From IMG/VR virus record IMGVR_UViG_3300027976_000058: a DNA stretch of 48,019 nucleotides; one strand, given 5' to 3'. Source of the DNA: a virus. Shown piece after piece: positions 17,350 through 34,862 of the stretch (the first letter of the stretch is position 1; each line of letters starts with the position of its first letter). The position numbers were made by a program, and so were the translations under genes. The notes beneath the pieces were generated by a model. It searched no databases. It worked only from the letters and a program-made list of their open reading frames with translations, and was not told the origin of the DNA.

Positions 17350-17360
17350 GGGGGATATTA

Positions 17361-17596: not shown

Positions 17597-17625
17597 TCGC
17601 AGCCAATACAACGCTTATAATGAGA
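17597..17625 (+). promoter_or_regulatory. 29-nt promoter-like element, copy 1
   Basis: tcgcagccaatacaacgcttataatgaga. Confidence 0.6.
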
Positions 17626-17643
17626 CTACCTGAAAGGACAGCA

Positions 17644-17934
17644 ATGTTTAGACTTATTAATAAAGATAGGGATGAAAGAGTTGACCGACTCATCGCCCGT
17701 GTTACTGACGATATGGAGATGTATGGTCCAGAATCCGAAGAATACTCCACCTCAATGGCATATTTGGAACGACTTCACGCACTCAAGGCTGAAAGCAAGC
17801 CTGAGCGCGTTAGCCGTGACACAATTGCACTTGTTGTTGGAAACATCATCGGAATCCTGGTCATCGTCGCCTACGAACAGAAGCACGTGATGACGAGCAA
17901 GGCTTTCGGAACAATCCTAAAGACGAGAAACTAA
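17644..17934 (+). CDS. hypothetical protein with a C-terminal TM segment
   Basis: The track start at 17620 is the ATG inside the TATAATGAGA promoter core. ATG 17644 follows GAAAGGA and is in frame. Confidence 0.55.
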   Translation: MFRLINKDRDERVDRLIARVTDDMEMYGPESEEYSTSMAYLERLHALKAESKPERVSRDTIALVVGNIIGILVIVAYEQKHVMTSKAFGTILKTRN

Positions 17935-17954
17935 ACAAGCAGACTTAAAGTAGT

Positions 17955-18009
17955 AAAAACACAAAGGCTGTGCGAGATTTAATAATCCCGCATAGCTTTT
18001 GTGTTTTTG
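17955..18009 (+). terminator. intrinsic terminator closing the late/structural unit
   Basis: About 19-bp stem (acacaaaggctgtgcgaga / tcccgcatagcttttgtgt, with G-U pairs) followed by TTTTT. Confidence 0.7.
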
Positions 18010-18083
18010 CTGTACTGTATACAACGATTGTTTATTTTTGAGTTTTTAAAAAAATTAAGCGGAGTTTCCTCAGAAAAACGAAT

Positions 18084-18112
18084 TCGCAAGAAATACAACG
18101 CTTATAATGAGA
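18084..18112 (+). promoter_or_regulatory. 29-nt promoter-like element, copy 2
   Basis: tcgcaagaaatacaacgcttataatgaga. Confidence 0.6.
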
Positions 18113-18164
18113 AGAAAGAATGGAGATTATAATATAGTGCTTAGCACCCATTCATTCTTTTTTT
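18113..18164 (+). ncRNA. candidate short (about 50-nt) transcript or attenuator: a hairpin plus U-run immediately after promoter copy 2
   Basis: agaaagaatgg ... ccattcattct stem (10 of 11 positions paired) followed by a T7 run. No ORF or RBS inside. Confidence 0.35.
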
Positions 18165-18222
18165 AAAAATTACTAACATGAATAAAGTATCTATTTACAA
18201 ATACAAAGGAGAAGCATTCACA

Positions 18223-18339
18223 ATGAGTAATCAAAACAATTACGGATGTGCTAATTTAATCTTGGACTGCGTCCTGACAATAATCACGGGAGGACTTTGG
18301 CTTATTTGGATTTTTGTTCGGGAGATGCGTAATCATTAA
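18223..18339 (+). CDS. small membrane protein (38 aa)
   Basis: Translated by hand. RBS AAAGGAGAAG lies 8 nt upstream. Sequence is MSNQNNYGCANLILDCVLTIITGGLWLIWIFVREMRNH. Confidence 0.5.
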   Translation: MSNQNNYGCANLILDCVLTIITGGLWLIWIFVREMRNH

Positions 18340-18468
18340 TCATGACTACATTTTTTCTCGTCCTAATCATCCTATTTAACTTACCATTTGTCTTCTTTAC
18401 GTCTGTGTATTTTTACGTGACGTTTAAAAAAAATATGTGTAAAAACCAAGAACTTTGAAAGGAAATAC

Positions 18469-19212
18469 ATGACGATCAATAATCTTATTCAACAAGCAAC
18501 GCAGCATATAACCAAAAACTCGCCTATTATTTTGACGGCTGCTGGTGTTACTGGTGTTGCAACAACTGCCTATTTGGCGGCAAAAGGATCGTTTAAAGCG
18601 GCTCGAATGATTGATGCCGTCAAAAATGAGTCTCATGACCCAAAAGAACGTATCAAAAACAACATTAAGCTTGTATGGCCGTGCTATGTTCCAGCAGTTC
18701 TTTCTGGAACCGTGACTGTAGGAGCAATTCTATTATCGCATAAAGTTGACACAAGCAGAACTGCGGCAGCGGTTAGTGCATATTCCATAACCGAGAAAGC
18801 CTTTACACAATACAAAGATAAGGTTGTCGAAGAGATTGGGCAGCACAAAGAGCAAATTATTGTAGACGATATTGCCCAAGAGCAAGTTGAGAAGAATCCT
18901 CCGGGAAAAAATAACCTAGTTATTGCAGGGAGTGGCGACGTGCTTTGTTGCGAGCGATACACCGGTAGGTATTTCAACTCAACCATGGAGACTCTTCGTA
19001 AAGCACAAAACGACATAAACCAAGAGATTGTAAACCATTTGTATGTACCGCTTGATTCTTTCTATGACATGGTAAAGCTTCCATCAACGGCACACTCATC
19101 CGAAATGGGTTGGGACTCATACGAGTTCTTGGAGTTTAAGTTCTCAACCGTTATGACCGAAGACGGACGGCCATGTTTGGCGTTTGATTATAACTACGTC
19201 AAGCCAATCTAA
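18469..19212 (+). CDS. N-terminally membrane-anchored protein, paralog of 20817..21689
   Basis: 247 aa. ..TKNSPIILTAAGVTGVATTAYLAAKGSFKAARMID.. resembles ..TKKQSPHIFFAAGVIGIVGATVMACRATLKLDETLND.. Confidence 0.65.
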   Translation: MTINNLIQQATQHITKNSPIILTAAGVTGVATTAYLAAKGSFKAARMIDAVKNESHDPKERIKNNIKLVWPCYVPAVLSGTVTVGAILLSHKVDTSRTAAAVSAYSITEKAFTQYKDKVVEEIGQHKEQIIVDDIAQEQVEKNPPGKNNLVIAGSGDVLCCERYTGRYFNSTMETLRKAQNDINQEIVNHLYVPLDSFYDMVKLPSTAHSSEMGWDSYEFLEFKFSTVMTEDGRPCLAFDYNYVKPI

Positions 19213-19215
19213 GTA

Positions 19216-19244
19216 ACGCATATTATACAACGCTTATAATGAGA
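19216..19244 (+). promoter_or_regulatory. 29-nt promoter-like element, copy 3
   Basis: acgcatattatacaacgcttataatgaga. Confidence 0.6.
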
Positions 19245-19264
19245 AACTATTGAAGGAGTGATCC

Positions 19265-19465
19265 ATGCAAAACTTAAAAGAGTTTTATGCCGTAGATAAA
19301 CCTGAAGATGAAGACGACTTGCACATTCGGTTTGTGAAAGGTATTCTCGGCTCAATCGCCGGAATACTTGCCGCAATAACTGTAAATGCTATTGTTGATC
19401 TATACATTGACAGGTCTAACAACGATAAAGACAAAGACGAAGATAATAACACGATAACTCAGTAA
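19265..19465 (+). CDS. small membrane protein with an acidic tail
   Basis: 66 aa with RBS GAAGGAG. Bracketed by promoter copy 3 and a terminator. Confidence 0.6.
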   Translation: MQNLKEFYAVDKPEDEDDLHIRFVKGILGSIAGILAAITVNAIVDLYIDRSNNDKDKDEDNNTITQ

Positions 19466-19473
19466 TAGCCATC

Positions 19474-19520
19474 AAACCTAAGCATATGCCCTAACCGGCA
19501 TGTGTTTAGGTTTTTCTTTT
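19474..19520 (+). terminator. intrinsic terminator
   Basis: 17-bp stem aaacctaagcatatgcc / ggcatgtgtttaggttt (G-U pairs) followed by a T-run. Confidence 0.7.
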
Positions 19521-19533
19521 CAAGAAGGAAATC

Positions 19534-19974
19534 ATGCTTAAGAAAGAAATAAAGTACACAACCTTTGACGATGAAGAAGTCTCAGACATCTTCTACTTCA
19601 ATATTTCAAAGGCCGAGCTTGTTGAGCTTCAGGTCGATTACGTCGAAGGTTTCGACAAAGCTATAAACCGTATTGTCGAAGCTGAAGACACTCAAAAGCT
19701 TATAAAAGAGTTTAAGCGCCTTGTATTGTTCTCCTATGGAGAAAAGTCTCCTGATGGAAAGCGGTTCATCAAAAACGACCAGCTCCGTGAAGAATTCGCT
19801 CAAAGCGCGGCATATTCTGAGCTATTCATGCAGCTTGCTACCAATGCAAACGCTGCTTCTGAGTTCATAAATAGTGTAATCCCTAAGGGATTAGGAGAAG
19901 CTCTGGATCAAGACAAACCGAATGGCCCACCCCCAGCCCCTATCGCACCGATTCAAAACAACCCTAACTTATAA
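19534..19974 (+). CDS. hypothetical protein
   Basis: 146-aa ORF with RBS GAAGGAA and a Pro-rich C-terminus. Confidence 0.6.
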   Translation: MLKKEIKYTTFDDEEVSDIFYFNISKAELVELQVDYVEGFDKAINRIVEAEDTQKLIKEFKRLVLFSYGEKSPDGKRFIKNDQLREEFAQSAAYSELFMQLATNANAASEFINSVIPKGLGEALDQDKPNGPPPAPIAPIQNNPNL

Positions 19975-19985
19975 AGGAATCTTAT

Positions 19986-20663
19986 ATGGATTATCAAGGG
20001 AATACTAATAAAGATAAAGAAAAAAACCAGGAAACAAACAAAGATGTTACTGAAAAGGTAAAGGCTCCTAAAGACGAATCAGATCGAGAAACAAAGCTCG
20101 AAAAGGTTGTATCTGGAGAGGTTGTTACTCGAAAGAAGCCTCTTGGAAAGCGCTTTAAGGAACTCTTCCTTGGAGGGGAGTTCAAGTCTGCTGGGCAGTA
20201 CTTGGCAGCCGAAGTTCTTCTTCCTGCGTTCCGTAATCTCTTGGTTGATGCAACTACAAAGGGTGTTGAGCGCGTAGTCTATGGAGATTCTTCTCTTGCA
20301 AGAGGGAGAGCTCCTTCGGGATATTCTCCTAAGGTTACTTACAATACCCCGATAAATCGTGGATATTCTCGAAATGAAATGACTAGGGCTAATCTCCCAG
20401 ATCAACCTAGTCGACCACGACCACGGAATGACGGAACCGAACTTATTCTTGCTTCGCGCAGTGATGCAGAAATGGTTCTTGAAAGGCTTCAGGATGTAAT
20501 TGATCGTTATCAGGTCGCATCGTTGGCTGACCTACACGAGCTTGCTGGAATTCCAACTACGTATTTGGATAACAAATTGGGTTGGGAGTCTTTGCGATTT
20601 GCAGAGATTCGTCAGGTTAGAGAAGGATATTTATTGGATCTTCCGCCCACCGAACACATCTAA
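19986..20663 (+). CDS. hypothetical protein (Lys/Glu-rich N-terminus)
   Basis: 225-aa ORF with RBS AAGGAA. Confidence 0.6.
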   Translation: MDYQGNTNKDKEKNQETNKDVTEKVKAPKDESDRETKLEKVVSGEVVTRKKPLGKRFKELFLGGEFKSAGQYLAAEVLLPAFRNLLVDATTKGVERVVYGDSSLARGRAPSGYSPKVTYNTPINRGYSRNEMTRANLPDQPSRPRPRNDGTELILASRSDAEMVLERLQDVIDRYQVASLADLHELAGIPTTYLDNKLGWESLRFAEIRQVREGYLLDLPPTEHI

Positions 20664-20670
20664 AGGAGGT

Positions 20671-20814
20671 ATGATGGGTGGTAATGTAGAAAGAGAACAA
20701 CTAAAAAAAGTATACCCATCTAAGACGTGGGCTAAAAAAGTAGACAACATGTCCGATCAACAAATCACGGCGATTTATATTCGTCTCCAATCTGAAAGAA
20801 AGCTAGGGAGGTAG
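20671..20814 (+). CDS. hypothetical small protein (47 aa)
   Basis: ATG follows AAAGGAGG. The longer track ORF starting at 20500 overlaps the previous gene and lacks an RBS. Confidence 0.5.
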   Translation: MMGGNVEREQLKKVYPSKTWAKKVDNMSDQQITAIYIRLQSERKLGR

Positions 20815-20816
20815 TT

Positions 20817-21689
20817 ATGAAATTTATTCCAAACTCAGTAACTCGATCTGTGGCAAACAAAGTTTTGACCACAAAAAAGCAGTCCCCGCATATTTTCTTT
20901 GCTGCGGGTGTAATTGGTATTGTTGGTGCAACTGTTATGGCTTGTCGTGCAACACTAAAGCTTGATGAAACTCTGAATGATATTCAGAGGGACATAGAAG
21001 CAATTAAACCGGACGAAGTTACTAACAAAAATGCGGATTACTATAAAGACGTTGGATACGTTTATAGTAAGAATCTTATCCGTGTTGGTCGTCTGTATGG
21101 CCCTTCAGTGGCTCTTGGTGCGGTATCTATCGCAGCCCTAACTGGGTCGCACGTCAGTCTTGCCCGGCGCAACACAGCGCTAAGTGCTACTGCAGTAACT
21201 CTTGCTCAGGCATTTGACAACTACCGTGTTCGGGTCAAGGCAGAACTTGGCAACGAGCGTGAGTTAGATATTTACCATTCTGTTGAAAACAAGATTATCT
21301 CGAAAGTTGATGGCTCAAAAGAGATTGTAAAAGTAGCAGATCCAAACACATGGTCCCCGTATGCACGATTCTTTGATGAGTACTCGCCCTATTGGGAGAA
21401 AAATGCTGAGTTGAATCGAGTCTATGTCAACTGTCAACAAAACTACTTCAATCATCGACTACAAGCACATGGGCACGTCTTCTTGAACGAAGTGTACGAC
21501 ACGTTTGGTATTAAACGAACTAAAGCTGGTCAGGTTGTCGGCTGGATCATTGGCAAAGACGGTGATAACTATATAGACTTTGGTATGTATGCCTGCCATA
21601 ACAGAGACTTTATTAACGCAAGTGAACGTTCAATTCTTCTAGACTTTAATGTTGACGGAGTTATCTATGATAAGCTGGGAGGCGCGTAA
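20817..21689 (+). CDS. N-terminally membrane-anchored protein, paralog of 18469..19212
   Basis: 290 aa with RBS GGGAGG. Shares N-terminal architecture with 18469..19212. Confidence 0.65.
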   Translation: MKFIPNSVTRSVANKVLTTKKQSPHIFFAAGVIGIVGATVMACRATLKLDETLNDIQRDIEAIKPDEVTNKNADYYKDVGYVYSKNLIRVGRLYGPSVALGAVSIAALTGSHVSLARRNTALSATAVTLAQAFDNYRVRVKAELGNERELDIYHSVENKIISKVDGSKEIVKVADPNTWSPYARFFDEYSPYWEKNAELNRVYVNCQQNYFNHRLQAHGHVFLNEVYDTFGIKRTKAGQVVGWIIGKDGDNYIDFGMYACHNRDFINASERSILLDFNVDGVIYDKLGGA

Positions 21690-22474
21690 TGAATGAACAA
21701 TTAAAAGTGCTTGTAATGCCGGTTACGGTCGGGGTGGTTGCGTTCTGCGGAGGCCTAAGCCTTGGATACATGTTTGGAGCTCGACGTAAAGTCACAGTTT
21801 ATGTGGATCGTAAAGAACCAATTCGCCCACAAAAAGTTGTTATCGAGCCAAAAACAGAAATGGAAATTGACAAACCAGCCTTTGTTGAAAAACGTCAAAT
21901 CGTACTCACGCCTAACCCAGATCCGGCGGATATAAAGGTTGATCATGAAGCAAAAAAGCTTCGTGAAAGATTGACCGCAGACCACGGGTATTCAGAAGCA
22001 AACAAAATTATTGAAGATATGAAGCGCGCTTGGGTAGACGAGTATGCCGAGTCAGATGAAGAAAGAGTAGTCAATGTGTTTGCTGGAACTTCAGAAAAAT
22101 GGAATTACGACGAAGAGTTAAGGAATAGGACAAAAACTGCTCCGTACGTCTTACACAAAGACGAGTTTTGGGCAGAAGAGTCTGGGTATGAGCAATCAAC
22201 TCTGACATATTTTCAAGGAGATGATATCCTTGTTGACGATAAAGATGTGCCAATCTACAACCACAACATTGTTATTGGTGAATTGAAGTTTGGGCATGGA
22301 TCCGGAGATCTTAACGTGTTCTATGTCCGAAACGTTGGGCATCAAGCAGAGTATGAAATTCTAATGGATCGTGGAAGTTACGCGATTGAAATACTCGGAC
22401 TTGATGCAGACCAATTCCAGGAAAAAGAAGAGTCAATTCGTCATTCTTCGACAAAGTTCCGACCGGATGATTGA
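21689..22474 (+). CDS. hypothetical protein with an N-terminal TM segment
   Basis: 261 aa. ATGA-type overlap with the upstream gene. Confidence 0.6.
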   Translation: MNEQLKVLVMPVTVGVVAFCGGLSLGYMFGARRKVTVYVDRKEPIRPQKVVIEPKTEMEIDKPAFVEKRQIVLTPNPDPADIKVDHEAKKLRERLTADHGYSEANKIIEDMKRAWVDEYAESDEERVVNVFAGTSEKWNYDEELRNRTKTAPYVLHKDEFWAEESGYEQSTLTYFQGDDILVDDKDVPIYNHNIVIGELKFGHGSGDLNVFYVRNVGHQAEYEILMDRGSYAIEILGLDADQFQEKEESIRHSSTKFRPDD

Positions 22475-22998
22475 TTATGTCGGAATCGGTCGATGATCTA
22501 TATTTGGGTTGGCTCCAATCAAAAGTGTTGCTTCGTAATCAACCATGGTATAACTACAGCAATCTTATAAACACCTTACATAATGTAGAGTATATTTGGT
22601 TAATTTTGGGAGATGATAACCGAGCGGATGATGGTGTAGATCTAAGATTTGAGTTTCTAAGAGACTCAAAGATTATTGTAAACTCCGTCTGGCTTAAACA
22701 AAGTTGCTCTGTCCTTGAGATGTTTGTGTCCTTCTCAAGGCGGGCAAACTTTCAAACGGATAAAGACCCTTGTCACTGGTTTTGGGAATTTATATCGAAC
22801 TTGGAGCTATCGCATCTGCATAATGATAATTTTGTTATGGATGAGTTTTTAGATAAAATTAACACTTTTGTGTGGAGAACATACGAATACAACGGAAAAG
22901 GAGGTATATTACCTTTGACAAATCCTCAAAGCGATCAACGCGAAGTTCAAATCTGGGATCAATTCTTTGCCTATCTTGAAGAAAATAATTGTGAATGA
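22471..22998 (+). CDS. hypothetical protein
   Basis: 175 aa. Overlaps both neighbours by 4 nt. Confidence 0.6.
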   Translation: MIMSESVDDLYLGWLQSKVLLRNQPWYNYSNLINTLHNVEYIWLILGDDNRADDGVDLRFEFLRDSKIIVNSVWLKQSCSVLEMFVSFSRRANFQTDKDPCHWFWEFISNLELSHLHNDNFVMDEFLDKINTFVWRTYEYNGKGGILPLTNPQSDQREVQIWDQFFAYLEENNCE

Positions 22999-27412: not shown

Positions 27413-27415
27413 AGT

Positions 27416-27838: not shown

Positions 27839-27945
27839 TAATAAGTTAGACGCAGGTAGTTAATATTTTAGGGCGCTAGAACCTATTGCGAGAGTTCTAC
27901 AGTCTGCGGAGAGTAACCCTATGACTCCCGGTCAGGCCGCCCAGT

Positions 27946-27974
27946 TCGCAATTAATACAATGCTTATAATGAGA
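27946..27974 (+). promoter_or_regulatory. 29-nt promoter-like element, copy 4
   Basis: tcgcaattaatacaatgcttataatgaga. Confidence 0.55.
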
Positions 27975-28114
27975 GAAGAGGTAAGATACGAAGGTGTATA
28001 AGAGAAAACTTATACCTACCTGGCGGCACCTGAAAAAGTGCTTAACGACTAGTTTTCGATAGGCTAGTAACCCACGCTTCTCTTTTTTTCTTTACCAACT
28101 AATTAGGAGAATAA

Positions 28115-28485: not shown

Positions 28486-28721
28486 CTCTTTTATATTTCC
28501 TCTGGCCCGGAGGAAAGTGACCTAGATCGCTCGCGTAACATAACCGGGTTTACATCTAATCGTCACACAAACTGATAACTGTCCCTTTTTTAGAGTGGCA
28601 GAAAAACAGTAAGGTAGTGCGGAAACCACTGCTGGGTACCTTTCGCTCCTGTGGGCGTCTCCCCGCCTGAGCACGCGGGATACAAACTGCTCCTATTCGC
28701 AAACAACTAATGGAGGAAATA

Positions 28722-28958: not shown

Positions 28959-28982
28959 TACATCTAACTCGTAGGAGTAATA

Positions 28983-29114
28983 ATGCTTAAATTATTTAAA
29001 TGCCGAAGTACTTACGGTGAAGACTTTAAATGTGAACGCTTTTTATTCCATCGTGGGCTTCATTACAAGAAGTCTTCTCGATACCCATATGTAAAACTCC
29101 GTTGGACTAGGTAA
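28983..29114 (+). CDS. small basic Cys/His-containing protein (43 aa)
   Basis: Translated by hand. RBS is TAGGAGTAATA. Sequence is MLKLFKCRSTYGEDFKCERFLFHRGLHYKKSSRYPYVKLRWTR. Confidence 0.4.
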   Translation: MLKLFKCRSTYGEDFKCERFLFHRGLHYKKSSRYPYVKLRWTR

Positions 29115-29117
29115 AAC

Positions 29118-29146
29118 TCGCAGAATTTACAACGCGTATAATGAGA
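29118..29146 (+). promoter_or_regulatory. 29-nt promoter-like element, copy 5
   Basis: tcgcagaatttacaacgcgtataatgaga. The 65 bp at 29116..29180 are identical to 31278..31342. Confidence 0.6.
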
Positions 29147-29173
29147 ACAAACCCACTAATCATTGGAGAAATT

Positions 29174-29428
29174 ATGAATGGCAACCTAATGAATGCTTTG
29201 GCAAAGAGCCCAACAAGTGGTAAAAGAGAGTTCGCAATCACAACAGTAGAATTAACATCCAAAGCCTTAATAGGCATCATGGCTGTTGAAGCCGTACTTG
29301 TTGCATGTGCGCGGGACTGGCTTTTATCATTAATGAGCGACAGCCCATATAATTCAATTTGGAATGAATCCACTACATTACTTAAAGATGTAATAGTAGA
29401 GTTTGATCAAAAACAAAACTGCGAGTAA
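29174..29428 (+). CDS. small membrane protein, cassette family A (84 aa)
   Basis: ATG follows TGGAGAA. The track start at 29141 is the ATG inside the promoter core. The C-terminus ..QKQNCE is shared with 29906..30148. Confidence 0.6.
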   Translation: MNGNLMNALAKSPTSGKREFAITTVELTSKALIGIMAVEAVLVACARDWLLSLMSDSPYNSIWNESTTLLKDVIVEFDQKQNCE

Positions 29429-29437
29429 AAACGCAAA

Positions 29438-29467
29438 GAAGGAGACCCACACGGGTTTCCTTTTTTT
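29438..29467 (+). terminator. intrinsic terminator (type 1: ggagaccc-acac-gggtttcc + T7)
   Basis: Direct reading. Confidence 0.75.
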
Positions 29468-29602
29468 GTCGTATAAGGATAACTACTAAGAATGTGTAAT
29501 GAAGACTTAAAGAGTAACATTCTGTAGGTGTTATACATGTTAAGATTAAATCCAATATATGGCACGACTTATATTTACCAACTAATTAAGGAGTAATAAA
29601 CA

Positions 29603-29848
29603 ATGCATCCTGGAATGAAGTGCAACGTATGTAATTTGGTTTGTACAGAAAACGAAAGAACTGAAGATGGTTATTATGCAGACCCATGTCTAGGTGTGCT
29701 CCCCGGAGTTATATTTGCTTGCTGTGGTCATGGGAAAAAAGATTACGGGTACGTGGCCTTTGAAAACGGAGCCACGATTAGATTTGATCTTATTATAAGT
29801 GAGTTTCAAAAGTTTTCCAAGCACAATAACTTCATAGGACGTGAGTGA
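29603..29848 (+). CDS. Cys-rich small protein (putative zinc-binding)
   Basis: 81 aa with RBS TAAGGAG. Contains CNVCNLVC..C..ACCGH. Confidence 0.55.
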   Translation: MHPGMKCNVCNLVCTENERTEDGYYADPCLGVLPGVIFACCGHGKKDYGYVAFENGATIRFDLIISEFQKFSKHNNFIGRE

Positions 29849-29849
29849 A

Positions 29850-29878
29850 TCGCAGAATTTACAACGCCTATAATGAGA
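29850..29878 (+). promoter_or_regulatory. 29-nt promoter-like element, copy 6
   Basis: tcgcagaatttacaacgcctataatgaga. Confidence 0.6.
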
Positions 29879-29905
29879 CAACTCACCTACCAAGGAGACT
29901 TAACC

Positions 29906-30148
29906 ATGAATGACAACCACATCAATACTATGACCGAGACCACCGAAGATGATACGAGTGAGTTTCCAACCACAGCAATGACATTAGTAGCTTGCGCCGT
30001 AATAGGCGCTACGCTTCCAACAGTCGCGCGCTTTGGATGGAACTATATTCGTACCGGATTTGAGAGCTTGCGTCCTAATAAAGATTTGGAAGCGGTTTAT
30101 TACATAAGTGAATCTGACGAAGATGAGAATAATCAAAACTGCGAGTAA
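29906..30148 (+). CDS. small membrane protein, cassette family A (80 aa)
   Basis: ATG follows CAAGGAGAC. The N-terminus MNDNHINTMTETTEDD resembles MNDNQVDTMTETTENG of 31336..31557. Confidence 0.6.
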   Translation: MNDNHINTMTETTEDDTSEFPTTAMTLVACAVIGATLPTVARFGWNYIRTGFESLRPNKDLEAVYYISESDEDENNQNCE

Positions 30149-30160
30149 AAACGCAAAGGA

Positions 30161-30187
30161 GGAGACCCCACAAGGGTCTCCTTTTTT
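30161..30187 (+). terminator. intrinsic terminator (perfect 8-bp stem ggagaccc/gggtctcc + T6)
   Basis: Direct reading. Confidence 0.8.
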
Positions 30188-30243
30188 GTCGTATAGGGAT
30201 ACTATTTATAATAAAACAACCAACTTCATAGGACGTAAGTAAA

Positions 30244-30272
30244 TCGTATATAATACAACGCTTATAATGAGA
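30244..30272 (+). promoter_or_regulatory. 29-nt promoter-like element, copy 7
   Basis: tcgtatataatacaacgcttataatgaga. Confidence 0.6.
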
Positions 30273-30289
30273 CAACTACTGGAGGAATT

Positions 30290-30469
30290 ATGAAATTTAC
30301 ATCAGGATATATGTTGGGCGCAATTACCGTAATTGCACTCGGAGGATCATTCCTAGCTGGAATCATTGCCAAGATGGCAATTGATGAAAAGATAGAAGAA
30401 ACTCTGACGCAAACTCGGACAAATGCAACCAACTCAGTTCTGAATATGTTCAAAACCAAAAGTAACTGA
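30290..30469 (+). CDS. small membrane protein (59 aa)
   Basis: Translated by hand. RBS is TGGAGGAA. Sequence begins MKFTSGYMLGAITVIALGGSFLAGIIAKMAIDEK... Confidence 0.55.
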   Translation: MKFTSGYMLGAITVIALGGSFLAGIIAKMAIDEKIEETLTQTRTNATNSVLNMFKTKSN

Positions 30470-30476
30470 CTAAAAA

Positions 30477-30506
30477 GGGGGAGCCTAACATGGCTTCTTC
30501 TTTTTT
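30477..30506 (+). terminator. hairpin plus T-run (type 2: gagcc-taacat-ggctt) overlapping the ATG at 30490
   Basis: Same element as 31015..31046. Confidence 0.45.
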
Positions 30507-30762
30507 CATAAATGCCTTAGAAAGAGGACAAATGTTTCAGTTTATAAATGGACAATATGGTTATGTGGTAGAGCTTGGTGAGAAGTTTCCACCGTTGCCT
30601 GTCACTGGAGTTGGTGACGAGATTCCATTTGCGGCGGCTTTGACTAACTCGATTCAGAATGGAACAATCAAAGAGCCGGGTAAGTATTTTATTCACTTTA
30701 CGAATGATGATTTAACCTCATTGAACTATGAAGTTTCTCGTGTATATGAACGTGACCAATAA
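30490..30762 (+). CDS. hypothetical protein (90 aa; start uncertain, alternative ATG at 30532)
   Basis: Track ORF. The first ATG sits in the loop of the hairpin. Confidence 0.5.
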   Translation: MASSFFINALERGQMFQFINGQYGYVVELGEKFPPLPVTGVGDEIPFAAALTNSIQNGTIKEPGKYFIHFTNDDLTSLNYEVSRVYERDQ

Positions 30763-30764
30763 AA

Positions 30765-30793
30765 TCGCAGAATCTACAATGCCTATAATGAGA
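30765..30793 (+). promoter_or_regulatory. 29-nt promoter-like element, copy 8
   Basis: tcgcagaatctacaatgcctataatgaga. Confidence 0.6.
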
Positions 30794-30812
30794 CAACCTA
30801 TAAGGAGACATT

Positions 30813-31010
30813 ATGAACAAAATCAAAGAAGTTGCTATCAACACCAAGAACCATCTGAAGCGTAACACCGTTTCTTATGCCTTAGGAGCACTTGCTATTT
30901 CAGCAATTGCCCTACAGCAAAAGAACGCAAAATCCTTCTATACGTTCCTGGAAAGTGAAGGCATTGACGTGATGAAGTACCTTAATGACGAACAATATGA
31001 AGAACTCTAA
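30813..31010 (+). CDS. small membrane protein (65 aa)
   Basis: RBS is TAAGGAGAC. Contains a TM segment VSYALGALAISAIAL. Confidence 0.6.
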   Translation: MNKIKEVAINTKNHLKRNTVSYALGALAISAIALQQKNAKSFYTFLESEGIDVMKYLNDEQYEEL

Positions 31011-31014
31011 AAAA

Positions 31015-31046
31015 GGAAGGAGCCTAACATGGCTTCTTCTTTTTTT
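31015..31046 (+). terminator. intrinsic terminator (type 2)
   Basis: ggaaggagcc-taacat-ggcttcttc followed by a T-run. Confidence 0.7.
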
Positions 31047-31048
31047 AA

Positions 31049-31077
31049 TCGCAGATAATACAACGTCTATAATGAGC
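31049..31077 (+). promoter_or_regulatory. 29-nt promoter-like element, copy 9
   Basis: tcgcagataatacaacgtctataatgagc. Confidence 0.55.
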
Positions 31078-31094
31078 CTACCAAGGAGACATAA

Positions 31095-31229
31095 ATGTTT
31101 GAAATCTTTCTATTAATCATTTTATTCATCCCTCTCGCAATTGCAGCTATCGCCATTTGGGCGATGAGTGTACTTGTGGGACGGATGTTTCGACTGATCT
31201 CAGGAATATTTGGACTAAGTGCCCGATAA
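31095..31229 (+). CDS. hydrophobic peptide (44 aa)
   Basis: Translated by hand. RBS is CAAGGAGAC. Sequence is MFEIFLLIILFIPLAIAAIAIWAMSVLVGRMFRLISGIFGLSAR. Confidence 0.5.
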   Translation: MFEIFLLIILFIPLAIAAIAIWAMSVLVGRMFRLISGIFGLSAR

Positions 31230-31238
31230 AGCTTTAAA

Positions 31239-31267
31239 GAAGGAGACCCACACGGGTTTCCTTTTTT
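31239..31267 (+). terminator. intrinsic terminator (type 1)
   Basis: gaaggagaccc-acac-gggtttcc + T6. Confidence 0.75.
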
Positions 31268-31279
31268 GTCTTGATTTAC

Positions 31280-31308
31280 TCGCAGAATTTACAACGCGTA
31301 TAATGAGA
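31280..31308 (+). promoter_or_regulatory. 29-nt promoter-like element, copy 10
   Basis: tcgcagaatttacaacgcgtataatgaga. Confidence 0.6.
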
Positions 31309-31335
31309 ACAAACCCACTAATCATTGGAGAAATT

Positions 31336-31557
31336 ATGAATGACAACCAAGTTGATACTATGACCGAGACCACAGAAAATGGTACAAAAGAGGTCGCAAT
31401 CACAGCGGCGACATTTGCAGCAGGCGCATTAATATTCGTCGTGCTTAAAAGAGTCGTACGGTATGTGAGGCGAGACTCTATTACACCATTAATGTGGAGC
31501 CGGCAATTTAACCCAGTTTGGCAAGAATCCACTAAAGTAATTCAAGATATGGATTGA
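31336..31557 (+). CDS. small membrane protein, cassette family A (73 aa)
   Basis: ATG follows TGGAGAA and is in frame with track ORF 31219..31557, whose 5' part runs through the terminator and promoter. Confidence 0.6.
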   Translation: MNDNQVDTMTETTENGTKEVAITAATFAAGALIFVVLKRVVRYVRRDSITPLMWSRQFNPVWQESTKVIQDMD

Positions 31558-31570
31558 AAACTCGTAGAAG

Positions 31571-31599
31571 GAGGGGACCCCACAAGGGTCTCCTTTTTT
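31571..31599 (+). terminator. intrinsic terminator
   Basis: gaggggaccc-cacaa-gggtctcc + T6. Confidence 0.75.
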
Positions 31600-31611
31600 G
31601 TCTTGATTTAC

Positions 31612-31640
31612 TCGCAGAATTTACAACGCCTATAATGAGA
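31612..31640 (+). promoter_or_regulatory. 29-nt promoter-like element, copy 11
   Basis: tcgcagaatttacaacgcctataatgaga. Confidence 0.6.
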
Positions 31641-31659
31641 CTACCAACAAGGAGTAATC

Positions 31660-31827
31660 ATGATCTGGACTATCGGATATCTCATCATTGCATTCGCTGC
31701 TATAGCGACTCTAGCCAAAGTTCTATGGAATCTTTATACGATTATCACAGAGCTTGAGCATGAGTTAGACTATGTGTACGAACTCATTGGTGAGCACATC
31801 GTTAACCTATCAGAAAACAACGAGTAG
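31660..31827 (+). CDS. small membrane protein (55 aa)
   Basis: Translated by hand. RBS is CAAGGAGTAA. Sequence begins MIWTIGYLIIAFAAIATLAKVLWNLYTIITELEHELDYVYE... Confidence 0.55.
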   Translation: MIWTIGYLIIAFAAIATLAKVLWNLYTIITELEHELDYVYELIGEHIVNLSENNE

Positions 31828-31836
31828 GAGTTAAAA

Positions 31837-31866
31837 GAAGGAGACCCACACGGGTTTCCTTTTTTT
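31837..31866 (+). terminator. intrinsic terminator (type 1)
   Basis: gaaggagaccc-acac-gggtttcc + T7. Confidence 0.75.
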
Positions 31867-31878
31867 GTCTTGATTTAG

Positions 31879-31907
31879 TCGCATATTATACAATGCTTAT
31901 AATGAGA
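31879..31907 (+). promoter_or_regulatory. 29-nt promoter-like element, copy 12
   Basis: tcgcatattatacaatgcttataatgaga. Confidence 0.6.
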
Positions 31908-31924
31908 CCAATAAGGAGCAAATA

Positions 31925-32071
31925 ATGATAAAAAAATTCCTAGACCTTGTAAACGCCAATAAACAACGAGCAGAAGATAGACGTCGAGAACGAAACAAAA
32001 ACTTCGTGATCGGCGGAATTATCCTAGCTATTGTATTAGCAACAAAAGACAAAGGAAAACGTAATCATTAA
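31925..32071 (+). CDS. small basic membrane protein (48 aa)
   Basis: Translated by hand. RBS is TAAGGAGCAAA. Sequence begins MIKKFLDLVNANKQRAEDRRRERNKNFVIGGIILAIVLATKDKGKRNH. Confidence 0.5.
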   Translation: MIKKFLDLVNANKQRAEDRRRERNKNFVIGGIILAIVLATKDKGKRNH

Positions 32072-32093
32072 AAACAATTTATTTCGACTCAAG

Positions 32094-32125
32094 ACCGAGG
32101 CCCTACACAAGGGCTTAGGTTTTTT
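32094..32125 (+). terminator. intrinsic terminator (type 3: accgaggccc-tacacaa-gggcttaggt + T-run)
   Basis: Direct reading. The same element recurs 300 bp downstream. Confidence 0.7.
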
Positions 32126-32137
32126 GACCCGTATACG

Positions 32138-32166
32138 TTGCATACTATAAAATACCTTTAATGAGA
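32138..32166 (+). promoter_or_regulatory. 29-nt promoter-like element, copy 13 (degenerate; TATAAT replaced by TTTAAT)
   Basis: ttgcatactataaaatacctttaatgaga aligns position-for-position with the consensus. Confidence 0.35.
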
Positions 32167-32189: not shown

Positions 32190-32387
32190 ATGTTAGAACA
32201 AGACGTGATAAATATGTTGTACGGAATTATGAACGCGATTAAGACCACTCAACCAAAGACTGATCGAGAAATAAAATTTTTTAATAGTCTGACAAAAGAG
32301 CTGGACAAGATTAAGGACAACCACCCAAAACTGTACATGAGCGCACGCGCTCATTACATCCAAGATTACATCGACGAGCAGAACTGA
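32190..32387 (+). CDS. hypothetical small protein (65 aa)
   Basis: RBS is CAAGGAGTAA. Confidence 0.6.
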   Translation: MLEQDVINMLYGIMNAIKTTQPKTDREIKFFNSLTKELDKIKDNHPKLYMSARAHYIQDYIDEQN

Positions 32388-32393
32388 CTCAAG

Positions 32394-32427
32394 ACCGAGG
32401 CCCTACACAAGGGCTTAGGTTTTTTTT
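32394..32427 (+). terminator. intrinsic terminator (type 3)
   Basis: Same hairpin as 32094..32125, followed by T8. Confidence 0.7.
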
Positions 32428-32455
32428 GTCGTATAGTGTAACCAAAGGAGAAATA

Positions 32456-32746
32456 ATGATACCAATCTCAGGTGAGCCACTATCAGTAGAGCATGCGTTA
32501 TCTATTGCGGAACAAGTTGAGTATCGCCAAAATCATTTTCGGGATGAAATGTTGTATACCAGCATTGCTGTGATTCTTATGAACTATGGGGAACAATTCC
32601 GAGAACTACGCTGTATCAATGGAGAATGGGGTGGTGTAAAAAGAGATATTGATGCTAGTGGAGGTATCCCGACTTGTCCGGACGGTCACCCCATATTCGA
32701 AGAAGCAAATCGAGTTGCCCTTGGGTGGGTTGGTGAGGAGTTTTGA
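32456..32746 (+). CDS. hypothetical protein (96 aa)
   Basis: ATG follows AAAGGAGAAATA. The track start at 32426 lies in the terminator T-run. Confidence 0.6.
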   Translation: MIPISGEPLSVEHALSIAEQVEYRQNHFRDEMLYTSIAVILMNYGEQFRELRCINGEWGGVKRDIDASGGIPTCPDGHPIFEEANRVALGWVGEEF

Positions 32747-32833
32747 TGGAGGAGTTTGAGCCACAAGAATTATTTGACTTTTGGATGCTTATTTACTTTG
32801 CTAAAAATTTTGGTACTATAGATAGTAAGGATT

Positions 32834-34033
32834 ATGATGATAAAACTCATGGACCACCAGACAGAAGCAATAGAAAGGCTCGGTAATGGAAAGATATTGT
32901 GGGGAGGAGTTGGAAGTGGAAAGTCACTTACGGCACTTGCTTACTACGCTAAAAGAGAATCTCCAAAAGACATCGTAGTCATCACTACTGCAAAAAAAAG
33001 AGACACTCTTGATTGGGAACGAGAAGCTGCTAAACTTACTATTTCCACAAATAAAGAATATACTGTAGATGGTGCTCTCATTGTTGAATCCTGGAACAAC
33101 ATTGGTAAGTTTGAAGATTATGAAGATTGTTTTTTCATTTTTGATGAGCAACGACTTGTTGGTAATGGCTCTTGGGTTAAATCATTTATAAAGATTGCTA
33201 AGCGAAACAAATGGATTATGCTCAGTGCCACACCAGGAGACAACTGGTTAGACTACGCTCCGGTATTCATTGCAAATGGATTCTTTAAGAACATAACTGA
33301 GTTCAAGATGAAGCATGTACTGTATGCGTCATATTCCAAGTACCCAAAGATTCGTGGCTATCTTAACGAGCGTCACCTAGAGGTACTACGCAATGATATT
33401 CTCATTGAGATGCCTTTTATCAAACATACCGAGAGAATGCTAAATTATATTGAAGTGGGCTTCGACCGTAAGAAGTTTGATGTAGTCCTGAAAAATCGTT
33501 GGAACCCATACAAAGATCAACCCATTCGCGATATTTCAGAAGTCTTTCGACTAATGCGTAGAGTTGTAAATGAAGATACATCACGACTAGATATGATTCG
33601 TAAGCTAATGACGTGCCACAATAGGTTAATCATATTCTACACATTTAACTACGAACTAGAACTACTAAGAACGTTAGGTGGTTGTATTGAGATTGGTGAA
33701 TGGAATGGTCATCGTAAGAATCCTATACCGGATAGTGAAAGGTGGGTTTATCTTGTTCAGTATACTGCAGGTGCTGAAGGTTGGAATTGCACGTCCACGG
33801 ACGCTATGGTCCTCTACTCCCTAACATATTCTTGGAAGAACTTTACTCAGGCTCAAGGTAGAATAGACCGTCTTGATACCCCTTTCACAACACTTTACTA
33901 CTATATCTTGTGGGCAAATTCGGAGATTGATAGAGCTATACGCGATGCACTTGACTCTAAGGAAACCTTTAACGAGAGAAAATACATAGCTAAAATGCTT
34001 GAAAACGAGCCACTTGAAATCGATGAATGTTAA
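32834..34033 (+). CDS. SF2 (DEAD/SNF2-like) helicase
   Basis: Walker A is GGVGSGKS, motif II is FIFDEQR, and the motif VI-like sequence is QAQGRIDR. The start may instead be the Met at 32849. Confidence 0.75.
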   Translation: MMIKLMDHQTEAIERLGNGKILWGGVGSGKSLTALAYYAKRESPKDIVVITTAKKRDTLDWEREAAKLTISTNKEYTVDGALIVESWNNIGKFEDYEDCFFIFDEQRLVGNGSWVKSFIKIAKRNKWIMLSATPGDNWLDYAPVFIANGFFKNITEFKMKHVLYASYSKYPKIRGYLNERHLEVLRNDILIEMPFIKHTERMLNYIEVGFDRKKFDVVLKNRWNPYKDQPIRDISEVFRLMRRVVNEDTSRLDMIRKLMTCHNRLIIFYTFNYELELLRTLGGCIEIGEWNGHRKNPIPDSERWVYLVQYTAGAEGWNCTSTDAMVLYSLTYSWKNFTQAQGRIDRLDTPFTTLYYYILWANSEIDRAIRDALDSKETFNERKYIAKMLENEPLEIDEC

Positions 34034-34308
34034 AAAAGCGAAATATTTGGTCAGATTTGACGGACGAACAAGGTGTGTGAATGTGTATGAAAGTGTGTTA
34101 AATTATACGAAACAACCAAATTTATTATGCGTTTTTAGTGATAACCAACTTTGTGGTGATCGTCAAATCTAAAACTCAAAAAGTACTACGTATTTATACC
34201 CCCCTCTATACGACTTAATATATGAAGAGAGTATAGAGGTATGACATTTTACCCACAACTCTTTGTTACCCAAAACTGGTCAAATCTGGCCAAAAGGAGA
34301 ATTAGACA
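34034..34308. other. 275-bp non-coding region with iteron-like and inverted repeats (candidate origin or operator region)
   Basis: GTCAAATCT occurs at 34162 and 34279, with its inverse AGATTTGAC at 34053. There are three GTGTRTGAA-like units at 34072..34100. A 9-bp inverted repeat is cctctatac (34203) / gtatagagg (34231). Confidence 0.35.
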
Positions 34309-34824
34309 ATGCAAGAGGTCTGGAAACCAATCGAAAGATTTCCAAGTTACAGTATAAGTTCGTTTGGAGAAGTCTTAAACCACCGAACAGATAAGCTAAT
34401 GGCAAAAAGCCGAACAATGCAGGGCGACTACAAAGTAACACTCGTACAGTATGGTGTAAGACTAACTAGATCCATAAGAGTTCTTGTGGCAGAAGCATTT
34501 GTTGATCCTCCATATTTTGGCCCAAGCGATTATGGAGTATTCTGTGATACCGTCATTATGCTGGATAATAACAAAGAGAACACGTTTGCACCAAACCTAG
34601 CATGGCGACCTTCTTGGTTTGCATGGAAGTATTCTCGACAGTTTGTAGAAGATCAACCAGAAAGCTATTACATAAAAAGAGTTAGTAATGTAGACAATAG
34701 TAAAGGATATCCGTCAATCATTGATGCGGCTATTAAGGATGGGCTTCTATTTGAAGATGTCTGGAAATCAGCTACAATGGGAACCGCAGTATACCCAACA
34801 GGAGCACACTACATATTTGGATAA
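34309..34824 (+). CDS. NUMOD4/HNH_3-like homing-endonuclease homolog, apparently lacking the catalytic histidines
   Basis: EVWKPIERFPSYSISSFGEV is NUMOD4-like. The ..RVLVAEAFV.. and ..VIMLDNNKENTFAPNLAW.. stretches occupy the positions where HNH_3 proteins have vHRLVaeaF and vdHiDgnkxNN. Confidence 0.55.
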   Translation: MQEVWKPIERFPSYSISSFGEVLNHRTDKLMAKSRTMQGDYKVTLVQYGVRLTRSIRVLVAEAFVDPPYFGPSDYGVFCDTVIMLDNNKENTFAPNLAWRPSWFAWKYSRQFVEDQPESYYIKRVSNVDNSKGYPSIIDAAIKDGLLFEDVWKSATMGTAVYPTGAHYIFG

Positions 34825-34833
34825 CGTATACTC

Positions 34834-34862
34834 TCGTTAAGAATACAACGCTTATAATAGAG
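34834..34862 (+). promoter_or_regulatory. 29-nt promoter-like element, copy 14 (variant ...TATAATAGAG)
   Basis: tcgttaagaatacaacgcttataatagag. Confidence 0.5.

Follow-up and report, generated by a model that had tools for sequence, protein, structure and literature searches.

Introduction

YonO of the Bacillus prophage SPbeta is a characterized relative of the enzyme considered here: it too is a phage-encoded transcription enzyme, one chain of about 100 kDa with a DxDGD catalytic loop. YonO serves a single late operon, which it transcribes from one start; the sequence of its promoter was left undetermined (PMC5467207). The Thermus phage P23-45 uses an AT-rich motif that is found only in relatives encoding its enzyme (PMC10770324). 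Across the whole phage supercluster relevant to this study, the polymerase described below is the sole conserved DNA-binding protein (10.1101/842583).

Here we analyzed the window, a stretch of 48,019 nucleotides of viral DNA (IMG/VR record IMGVR_UViG_3300027976_000058), in which an earlier note had listed fourteen copies of a promoter-like element and left host, phage or dual use open. Our findings strengthen its suspicion of the phage polymerase and, in place of an open choice, favor a phage-specific reading: the fourteen elements are probably promoters for the phage’s own QDE-1/YonO-type polymerase rather than standard sigma-A promoters. They would thus offer the first testable promoter sequence for a large uncharacterized polymerase family, and the signal recurs in phages of very different bacteria. 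We found no description of the element in the searchable literature.

Results

A bounded element in intergenic DNA

The 19-nt core TACAAYGCYTATAATGAGA, allowing up to 3 mismatches, matched 13 times in the window, always on the + strand, from 17607 to 32148. Shuffled sequence is expected to yield 0.05 such matches (sd 0.22), and 0 of 100 shuffles reached 13. A variant at 34834 (TCGTT...TATAAT-AGAG), outside these core matches, completes the fourteen, all of which lie where the earlier note had placed them (Table 1). Every copy is non-coding, on the + strand and sharply bounded, with the layout TCGCA-N5-TACAAYGC-N-TATAAT-GAGA (29 nt). High information content is confined to positions 0-4 (TCGCA), 10-17 (TACAAYGC) and 19-28 (TATAATGAGA), the blocks reported before, together with an A 7 nt beyond the hexamer (position 31). 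Fourteen bases, not the 13 counted previously, lie between TCGCA and TATAAT. The hexamer is TATAAT in 13 of the 14 copies and TTTAAT in one. We also confirmed that sigma-70 landmarks beyond the hexamer are missing: the 20 nt upstream of the 14 copies are unconserved, including the would-be -35 position, and TG before the hexamer is absent from all of them.

Table 1. Coordinates of the element copies and associated features in the window.
Feature	Coordinates	Strand	Context
Copy 1 (TCGCAGCCAATACAACGCTTATAATGAGA)	17597..17625	+	Precedes 96-aa ORF 17644-17934
Copy 2	18084..18112	+	Followed by 56-nt hairpin RNA ending in a U-run, 18109-18164
Copy 3, ACGCA variant of box A	19216..19244	+	Heads replication operon 19265-27838
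Copy 4	27946..27974	+	Upstream of conserved structured RNA
Conserved ~115-nt structured RNA	27971..28091	+	Helix P1 pairs GAGAGAAG directly after TATAAT with CTTCTC before the U-run
Copy 5	29118..29146	+	Precedes small membrane-like ORF 29174-29428
Copy 6	29850..29878	+	Precedes ORF 29906-30148
Copy 7, TCGTA variant of box A	30244..30272	+	Precedes ORF 30290-30469
Copy 8	30765..30793	+	Precedes ORF 30813-31010
Copy 9, ends GAGC	31049..31077	+	Just after hairpin and T-run; precedes ORF 31095-31229
Copy 10	31280..31308	+	After terminator 31235-31268; promoter and leader identical to copy 5
Copy 11	31612..31640	+	After terminator 31567-31599
Copy 12	31879..31907	+	After terminator 31832-31867
Copy 13, degenerate (TTGCA...TAAAATACC-TTTAAT-GAGA)	32138..32166	+	After terminator 32098-32116; hexamer without A at position 2
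Copy 14, variant (TCGTT...TATAAT-AGAGAG)	34834..34862	+	Heads operon of 106-aa ORF, exonuclease and RNA polymerase
893-aa predicted single-subunit two-barrel RNA polymerase	35756..38437	+	DFDGD at residues 517-521

Many copies directly follow hairpin and U-run terminators. The claim that every copy stands 15-35 nt upstream of a Shine-Dalgarno sequence (SD) and ATG fails for three: the 27946 copy precedes a structured RNA, the 18084 copy a hairpin RNA (the next convincing SD-preceded ATG is at 18223, about 110 nt downstream of TATAAT), and the 34834 copy lies about 53 nt from its ATG. The 106-aa ORF behind the last (34912-35232) is a nuclease in relatives, where a variant copy occupies the same place. 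As anticipated, the ATG within TATA-ATG-AGA artificially lengthens the ORFs called at 17620, 29141 and 29873; in the 31280 copy this ATG is in frame with the ORF at 31219, which reads through it.

The promoter-like character first ascribed to the element is borne out. Its copies flank short paralogous gene cassettes, and the proteins behind copies 5 and 10 are only 30% identical despite the shared promoter and leader, as might be seen if the element were instead a cassette-shuffling boundary, a stoperator-like operator or a start-associated translation sequence. We regard such roles as very improbable: the copies keep strictly to one strand, just after terminators and just before SD and ATG or small RNAs; an AT-rich, meltable hexamer is followed by a purine run; and conservation is confined to 29 nt between unrelated flanks. 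Since the element also precedes non-coding RNAs, it is not a translation signal.

The element in relatives

The three-part element, with identical spacing, is present in every examined relative that encodes the polymerase, including 7 of 7 sequenced phages checked: this window, Streptomyces phage Rima (12 copies, 60% GC DNA), Gordonia phage Petito (13), Arthrobacter phage Gordon (about 10), Lactococcus phages 1706 (11) and P118 (about 9, 33% GC DNA), and Faecalibacterium phage FP_oengus (11). It also occurs in about 20 IMG/VR contigs among those with the polymerase gene. Genome GC of the element-bearing relatives ranges over 33-60%, and wherever we checked both strands the copies proved to be on the coding one. 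Element and polymerase gene thus co-occur across phyla, whatever the host, which upholds the earlier view: conservation of 29 nt across the start speaks for a phage polymerase and not for a plain sigma-A promoter.

Conservation of TACAAYGC as a whole holds in the window; across the family only TCGCA and TACA are kept. Box A itself varies by lineage (TCGCA, TCGCG, CCRCA, TAACA, TTTTA, ACGCG), which fits a co-evolving phage-encoded reader and not host sigma region 4.

Hexamer and start site

TATAAT is the exact sigma-A -10 consensus, and the A 7 nt downstream of it in 13 of the 14 window copies sits at a sigma-type start position; both observations count against a phage-polymerase reading. They would be accounted for if the elements were “-10 only” promoters of host sigma-A, starting about 7 nt downstream, with a phage factor at TCGCA and TACA replacing the -35 contact as in the middle promoters of T4 (MotA/AsiA). 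Many actinobacterial promoters do function with a -10 element alone, the -35 element often being missing, and the distance from box A to the hexamer resembles MotA box spacing. The HTH portion of the 893-aa protein could even be this factor, in the role of an activator, with the phage polymerase then employed elsewhere, for instance in late transcription or in priming.

The family-wide data make this sigma-A scheme unlikely in our judgment. In 190 instances anchored without using the hexamer, position 2 was the least conserved (A in 74%), and T1, T3 and T6 reached 91-96%; variants included TGTAAT, TTTTAT, TTTAAT and CTTTAT, and whole lineages use CTTTAT or TTTTAT. Sigma-70-family factors cannot do without the A at -11, which hardly ever varies in their promoters. 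A generic sigma-70 scan picked up just 3 of the 14 copies, and sigma-70-type sites in the 17-36 kb region numbered 48 against 49.9 expected. No enrichment of such promoters appeared anywhere in the genome, where matches were at or below chance.

The RNA behind the 27946 copy bears most directly on the start. It has 22 homologues, of which 20 entered alignment A7 and 2 were found later, and no match in Rfam. In A7, 97% of pair cells were paired, and the observed covariation was reached by 0 of 500 shuffles. Positions +1 to +6 after the hexamer (GAGARG) pair in helix P1 with CYTCTC just before the U-run, with a compensatory A-U to G-C change at +5. In 17 of the 20 aligned homologues, and likewise in the 2 later ones, P1 opens with the base right behind the hexamer; in L108, L160 and L189, where the model put it a few bases further in, outer pairing traced by eye gives the same flush P1. 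Homologues found without the hexamer (L012, L108, L160, L189, L207 and L223) fit this arrangement as well. Similarly, in the RNA that follows the 18084 copy, the 5′ end pairs with the 3′ U-run to close the structure (z -4.05).

Because the covarying P1 begins there, the start site is probably the G of GAGA directly after TATAAT, not a base 7 nt downstream. P1 could form in an upstream read-through transcript too, so it shows that GAGA is transcribed, not strictly where the 5′ end lies. The actinophage leaders point the same way: they read TATAAT-GAGACCCCTAC, with CCCC at the expected sigma start, so that a sigma-type start 6-8 nt downstream would land in a pyrimidine run. The earlier note had expected initiation 6-8 nt downstream of TATAAT, and the position it proposed to test was probably aimed wrongly.

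The polymerase

The ORF at 35756-38437, previously proposed as the phage polymerase, is by its predicted structure a two-barrel RNA polymerase of the QDE-1/YonO type, not a T7-like one. Its AlphaFold2 model (pLDDT 82, pTM 0.70) retrieved QDE-1 as the top Foldseek hit in the PDB (E 4e-10, probability 1.0), then RDR2, then beta-prime subunits. The ORF matches phrog_4291 (E = 0) and has no match to Pfam RNA_pol; SGADFDGD is invariant across the aligned homologues. HTH modules lie at both ends (residues about 43-70, 88-118 and 858-892), with HTH_23 and Sigma70_r4-like matches, and the N-terminus is invariant but disordered. When compared with the box A variants, the HTH recognition helices did not covary cleanly, which counts against the phage-specific reading.

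Among 39 non-structural ORFs we detected no further sigma or HTH protein, leaving no other candidate reader. Nor did we find a MotA-, AsiA- or sigma-like gene, which argues against host sigma-A with a phage coactivator. That scheme would also leave the phage polymerase in need of its own promoter, and we found no second conserved motif able to serve as one, nor is there room for it before the late genes. In its favor, YonO transcribes late, not early, genes (PMC5467207). FP_oengus and many Lachnospiraceae relatives are prophages, and after induction they must start transcription without a virion enzyme; this need for the host polymerase in temperate relatives counts against the phage-specific reading.

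The polymerase gene adjoins the late genes and, in relatives, lies at the genome end. Its homologue in phage 1706, orf75, is annotated “structural protein” in GenBank, a label that we could not trace to its source data. The polymerase may be produced late, go into the virion and enter the next cell together with the DNA, ready to begin a new round of infection.

Discussion

If the phage’s own polymerase reads the elements, as we consider probable, their anatomy counted from the proposed start would be box A (TCGCA) at -25 to -21, box B (TACA(AYGC)) at -15 to -8, the AT-rich hexamer TATAAT at -6 to -1 and an initiating purine run, GAGA, at +1 to +4. Box A, box B and the hexamer are about one helical turn apart and would therefore all face the same side of the DNA. 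Boxes A and B may be read by the HTH modules of the polymerase (two N-terminal, one of them sigma-region-4-like, and one C-terminal), with the AT-rich hexamer melted beside the active site and RNA beginning at the G right after it. The thirteen consensus copies would then drive short early units, many of them insulated by hairpin and U-run terminators: small membrane-like proteins, the replication operon and two small RNAs, with the conserved structured RNA driven by the 27946 copy. The 34834 variant would head the operon of the polymerase gene, continuing into lysis and structural genes.

That variant keeps TATAAT without box A and GAGA, as a division of labor would predict in which sigma-A weakly uses TATAAT as a bootstrap, at the polymerase operon or on prophage induction, and the phage polymerase uses the full 29-nt element with its own start. 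Such dual use would reconcile the perfect TATAAT and the +7 A with the non-sigma features of the family, and temperate relatives do exist. We nevertheless think it quite improbable: two start sites per element are without direct support, the route is closed to lineages with a CTTTAT hexamer, and it is less economical than the virion delivery hinted at by the 1706 annotation.

Among known systems, sigma-70/sigma-A promoters share the TATAAT hexamer, and T4 middle promoters likewise have an upstream box that stands in for the -35 element but sits closer to the hexamer. Here, however, neither a -35 element nor TGn is present, conservation within the hexamer is lowest and not highest at position 2, RNA probably starts right beside the hexamer, MotA- or AsiA-like genes were not found, and phages of different phyla share the conserved element.

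Promoters of the T7/T3/SP6 type offer a formal parallel, being contiguous, phage-specific consensus sequences of 23-29 bp that run through the start site, in many copies of one orientation, with the polymerase gene in the same genome. Their AT-rich “TATA” likewise abuts a purine-rich start (TATA-GGGAGA in T7, TATAAT-GAGA here). The present enzyme differs in its predicted two-barrel QDE-1/YonO fold, which has no relation to the Pol I-like right hand. The element for its part consists of three blocks repeating about every 10 bp, and its recognition presumably falls to HTH modules and not to a specificity loop with an AT-rich recognition loop.

The virion RNA polymerases (N4 vRNAP, phi14:2 gp66 and P23-45 gp96) are injected and read phage-specific motifs upstream of early genes, a likeness for which virion location is here only hinted at by the 1706 annotation. 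The P23-45 and crAss-like phi14:2 enzymes are two-barrel too, whereas N4 uses hairpin promoters; none of the three enzymes carries fused HTH modules, and none of their promoters resembles TCGCA-N5-TACA-N5-TATAAT. From YonO, finally, the present family is set apart by its N- and C-terminal HTH modules and by 10-14 conserved copies of the proposed promoter among the early and replication genes.

Architecture and placement of the element

The window holds the complete genome, at 42% GC, of a siphophage from a metagenome (JGI 3300007516), with every gene on the + strand, and its circular assembly follows from an ORF that spans the window junction. When 12 kb were compared by megablast with the phage collection, no near-identical relatives came up, and relatives of this phage are detectable at the protein level only. 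The protein sequence of the large terminase shares ~80% identity with its counterparts in Gordonia and Streptomyces phages, compared with only about 50% for the 893-aa polymerase. Rfam and tRNA scans of the window gave no match. The elements are confined to the non-structural block (17.6-35 kb), which contains small ORFs, primase/polymerase, annealing protein, helicase and exonuclease; lysis and late genes come after the polymerase gene.

The 19-nt core of the element, TACAAYGCYTATAATGAGA, has 13 matches at ≤3 mismatches, all on the + strand between 17607 and 32148, against a mean of 0.05 matches in 100 dinucleotide-preserving shuffles, none of which reached 13. Together with a variant at 34834, these matches bear out the fourteen + strand copies described in the earlier note. 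Per-position information content across the 14 copies is high at four places only: TCGCA (element positions 0-4; box A), TACAAYGC (10-17; box B), TATAATGAGA (19-28), which includes the TATAAT hexamer, and a single A (31). The 20 nt 5' of the element, including the place for a -35 hexamer, carry no information in the 14 copies, and none of them has TG before the hexamer; the absence of a conserved -35 position and of a TGn extended -10, both claimed earlier, thus hold. A generic sigma-70 scan was passed by three copies only.

Because the upstream 20 nt are uninformative and the blocks sharp, we regard the element as a bounded functional motif and not as the remnant of a duplication; a duplication relic was likewise rejected on the unrelated flanks of the copies. 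Most copies lie 20-35 nt upstream of the SD and ATG of a small ORF, and several are directly 3' of a hairpin and T-run terminator. An SD and ATG 15-35 nt downstream had been claimed for all copies, which stands for most and fails for three: the 27946 copy leads into a non-coding RNA and the 18084 copy into a short RNA ending in a hairpin, and from the 34834 copy the ATG is ~53 nt away. That the element is not a promoter at all strikes us as very improbable. A start-associated sequence or operator was rejected as a reading of the element, as was TACAAY as the true -10, for which the spacing to the start would be wrong and no -35 would match.

Copies 5 and 10, together with a ~45-nt leader, are identical, though their small membrane-like products are only ~30% identical. 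The regulatory part is here either homogenised or constrained much more than the coding part.

Coordinates of features in the window
Feature	Position	Strand	Remarks
Structural genes	about 0.4-17.5 kb	+	
Large terminase	463-2208	+	
56-nt RNA after the 18084 element	18109-18164	+	no ORF; 5' end pairs with 3' U-run; MFE -14.8 kcal/mol, z -4.05
Conserved ~115-nt structured RNA	27971-28091	+	four helices; downstream of the 27946 element
Paralogous small membrane-like proteins	29174-29428, 29906-30148, 31336-31557		mutual identity ~30%
Fourteenth copy of the element, variant	34834	+	
Polymerase gene	35756-38437	+	893 aa
143-aa ORF	38954-39385	+	shortly 3' of the polymerase gene; 2'-5' RNA ligase / LigT phosphoesterase matches
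9-nt tandem repeats TGCTGATGG	43570-43707	+	about 15 copies; inside collagen-like 751-aa ORF
Shorter repeat array GGTGCTGAT	44590-44645	+	in the ORF following the collagen-like ORF
ORF across the window junction	47804-48019, continuing at 1-444	+	45-nt tandem repeat (SSGSSSSGKDNKKGE)n

The element accompanies the polymerase across phages

The element, with its spacing unchanged, is present in every examined relative that encodes the polymerase, and its copies lie on the coding strand wherever both strands were checked. Box A varies by lineage (TCGCA, TCGCG, CCRCA, TAACA, TTTTA and ACGCG); the deep core across the family consists of TACA, the hexamer and a purine run after the hexamer, which is universal. 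In most of 160 loci, few copies fall within 10 kb of the polymerase gene, which is no evidence of absence because the small-gene array lies further upstream.

Forms of the element in phages encoding the polymerase
Phage	Copies	Element
Streptomyces phage Rima (60% GC)	12	TCGCA-N5-TACA-N5-TATA(G/A)T-GAGACCCCTAC
Gordonia phage Petito	13	unchanged architecture
Arthrobacter phage Gordon	about 10	unchanged architecture
Lactococcus phage 1706	11	YYRCA-N5-TACA-N5-TATAGT-AGAAAG
Lactococcus phage P118 (33% GC)	about 9	TTTTA-N5-TACAYACCC-TATAAT-GAAAGG
Faecalibacterium phage FP_oengus	11	ACGCG-AAAAA-TnCA-N5-CTTTAT-GGAAG
About 20 IMG/VR contigs	several each	variants

Since the element is conserved across phyla, its reader must be a factor conserved over the same range. 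The polymerase is the sole DNA-binding protein among those shared across its supercluster of phages (10.1101/842583), and no other sigma or HTH protein was detectable among the 39 non-structural ORFs of the window. A comparison of box A with the HTH helix in 16 polymerases revealed PTSTYKTLL in the TAACA lineage where most have ESSVRALL; two of the loci, L080 and L015, share one helix but differ in their boxes, and no clean covariation emerged.

Other repeated sequences were seen in the relatives. In Gordon, three copies lie in a gene-free stretch (~31513-31800) followed by tRNA-like sequence (e.g., GGTTCGAATCC) and no ORFs. In positions 1-35000 of the FP_oengus locus, all 31 occurrences of the 8-mer TGATATTT are on the coding strand, both within genes and between SD and ATG. 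Similar strand-specific oligomers, e.g., TGCCCACTTTT and TTATATTTG, are found in related prophage loci.

The hexamer appears to depart from the sigma-70 pattern

To describe the hexamer, we collected 190 distinct family instances anchored on box A, box B and GAGA, leaving the hexamer itself out of the selection. From the first to the sixth position, the preferred bases were T (94%), A (74%), T (91%), A (81%), A (88%) and T (96%). A2 is thus absent in a quarter of the instances (e.g., TGTAAT, TTTTAT, TTTAAT and TCTAAT), and FP_oengus has CTTTAT in all copies. In -10 elements of the sigma-70 family, A2 and T6 hardly ever vary and position 3 is only weakly conserved; A2 is so constrained because the A at -11 flips into a pocket of sigma region 2. 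Judged from its composition, the family hexamer would follow the opposite pattern. The element falls outside the sigma-70 class on the -35 and TGn criterion, and hexamer conservation and start position lean against membership.

These patterns bear on the possibility that host sigma-A reads the element with the help of a phage activator. TATAAT matches the sigma-A consensus exactly, an A at +7 of the window copies suits a start 6-8 nt downstream of the hexamer (a sigma-type start), and a -10 element is often sufficient in actinobacterial promoters. Host sigma-A could account for TATAAT and cannot account for TCGCA and TACA or for their lineage-specific drift, and hexamer position 2 is variable. 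We consider sigma-A with a phage activator an unlikely explanation.

In none of the three parts of the genome do sigma-70-type matches exceed chance; at 17-36 kb there are 48 against 49.9 expected. In the late regions (1-17600 and 36000-48019), they fall below the shuffles, at 20 versus 31.5 (sd 6.1) and 16 versus 20.5; this deficit may reflect avoidance of host-type promoters.

Structured RNAs point to a start directly after the hexamer

The ~115-nt RNA, which matched no Rfam family, appears from its position and structure to be transcribed from the 27946 element. Six homologues served to build a covariance model, which recovered 20 homologues in the loci examined, and a scan independent of the hexamer added two true homologues among 80 loci, both fitting the pattern, the rest being mostly chance matches. 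The resulting 22 homologues reside in related phage contigs, including Petito and Lachnospiraceae prophages. Standard pairs fill 97.4% of the pair cells of the 20 aligned sequences, and in 21 of 27 pairs both partners have changed; none of 500 shuffles and no slid register came near the observed covariation.

In the closing helix, P1, GAGARG pairs with CYTCTC one base 5' of the terminal U-run, and the changes compensate: GAGAGG pairs with CCTCTC and GAGAAG with CTTCTC, position 5 being A-U in 13 sequences and G-C in 6. Of the 20 aligned homologues, 17 have the 5' arm of P1 starting immediately 3' of the hexamer, as do both homologues from the promoter-independent scan. For the other three, from Petito and two Lachnospiraceae prophages, the model set P1 slightly inward by a few bases; when paired by eye, their GAGA still pairs with the last bases before the U-run. 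The 56-nt RNA, whose ends also pair, may act as a small RNA or serve the 18223 ORF as an attenuator-like leader.

As the ends of the RNA pair and a terminator fixes its 3' end, the predicted 5' end is the G following TATAAT. Were transcription to begin 7 nt further on, as at a sigma-type start, the 5' arm of P1 would be missing, and the actinophage copies have CCCC where such a start is expected. The evidence is indirect: a transcript reading through from upstream could contain the helix too. The start 6-8 nt after TATAAT anticipated in the earlier note does not appear to be borne out, as the P1 arm begins at the first post-hexamer base.

A candidate mechanism centered on the polymerase

By its sequence and modeled fold, the 893-aa protein is evidently a two-barrel-type RNA polymerase. 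SGADFDGD at residues 514-521 is invariant throughout the aligned homologues, and the best PDB match of the AlphaFold2 model (pLDDT 82, pTM 0.70) was QDE-1 (E 4e-10, probability 1.0), followed by RDR2 and then the beta-prime subunits of cellular polymerases. Pfam matches are to HTH modules only (residues 43-70 and 88-118), the second resembling HTH_23 and Sigma70_r4, and a third HTH lies at the C-terminus. The protein is assigned to phrog_4291, and its very large family numbers at least 8000 protein clusters, with members on at least 600 IMG/VR contigs. Reference genomes hold 312 loci, many of them prophages of (gut) Lachnospiraceae. Existing annotations of the family go no further than "HTH DNA-binding protein" and "RNA-dependent RNA polymerase". 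Both the DxDGD motif and the HTH ends had been pointed out in a preprint, which described the polymerase as a signature protein for a supercluster of phages of Actinobacteria and Firmicutes and is silent on promoters (10.1101/842583).

We think it probable that the elements are promoters for the phage polymerase only. Numbered from the start G, TATAAT would occupy -6 to -1, TACA -15 to -12 and TCGCA -25 to -21, which places three blocks about one helical turn apart for a polymerase with three HTH modules. Boxes A and B would be read by these modules, and the AT-rich hexamer would melt next to the active site, in the manner of the TATA of T7-type promoters. Consensus copies would drive the replication operon as well as short early units insulated by terminators, and the variant copy at 34834 would head a nuclease-exonuclease-polymerase operon; Gordon and Petito have variant copies at the same position. 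The window has no promoter or gap between the polymerase gene and the late genes, and no second, late-specific motif emerged from repeated k-mers, the few late-region gaps inspected or sigma-70-type scans.

With the polymerase gene itself behind such an element, either the enzyme arrives in the virion or the host enzyme fires at least one copy. Temperate relatives, which must begin transcription without a virion enzyme, speak for host use. We judge dual use of the element by sigma-A and the phage polymerase quite improbable. Three pointers suggest delivery in the virion: the homologue in Lactococcus phage 1706 carries the label "structural protein", relatives have the gene at the late end of their genomes, and the N-terminal peptide YLVHYGIIRRSGRYPWGSG is invariant, yet predicted disordered. 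This peptide resembles the DUF7211 motif (E 8e-10) at the N-terminus of the junction-spanning ORF, FLEHYGIKGQRWGVRR, just before the terminase gene, and the two may share a packaging or ejection signal.

Implications and relation to known systems

Text searches, covering literature outside subscription, retrieved no prior description of the motif strings or of promoters for this polymerase family. What is new is a probable promoter for an uncharacterised polymerase family, with a three-part architecture matching the HTH modules. The evidence is evenly poised on the broader reading that this is the first promoter code of HTH-fused single-chain two-barrel polymerases: a virion-carried enzyme would recognize dsDNA promoters unaided through a built-in sigma-region-4-like HTH and start right after an AT-rich hexamer, the code extending from phages of Lactococcus to those of Streptomyces, with upstream boxes that vary by lineage. 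On this reading, the family would form a natural set of orthogonal, sigma-independent transcription systems for Gram-positive bacteria.

How single-chain two-barrel polymerases find promoters becomes testable through the window and its relatives, which supply a precise 29-nt candidate, a predicted start and natural variants, and Streptomyces, Gordonia, Arthrobacter and Lactococcus phages offer culturable test systems. If confirmed, the promoter would change how transcription is annotated in several hundred sequenced actinophages and in many gut prophages, and would provide an evolutionary model of promoter specificity built into a minimal polymerase through HTH fusion. It would also yield compact orthogonal expression parts for Gram-positive hosts.

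YonO, the sole characterised relative of this type, has no determined promoter sequence (PMC5467207). As far as sequence can tell, the element functions like the promoters of T7-type phage polymerases and the early promoters of virion polymerases (N4, crAss-like gp66 and P23-45 gp96; PMC10770324). It differs from both in its enzyme, which is of the QDE-1/YonO type.
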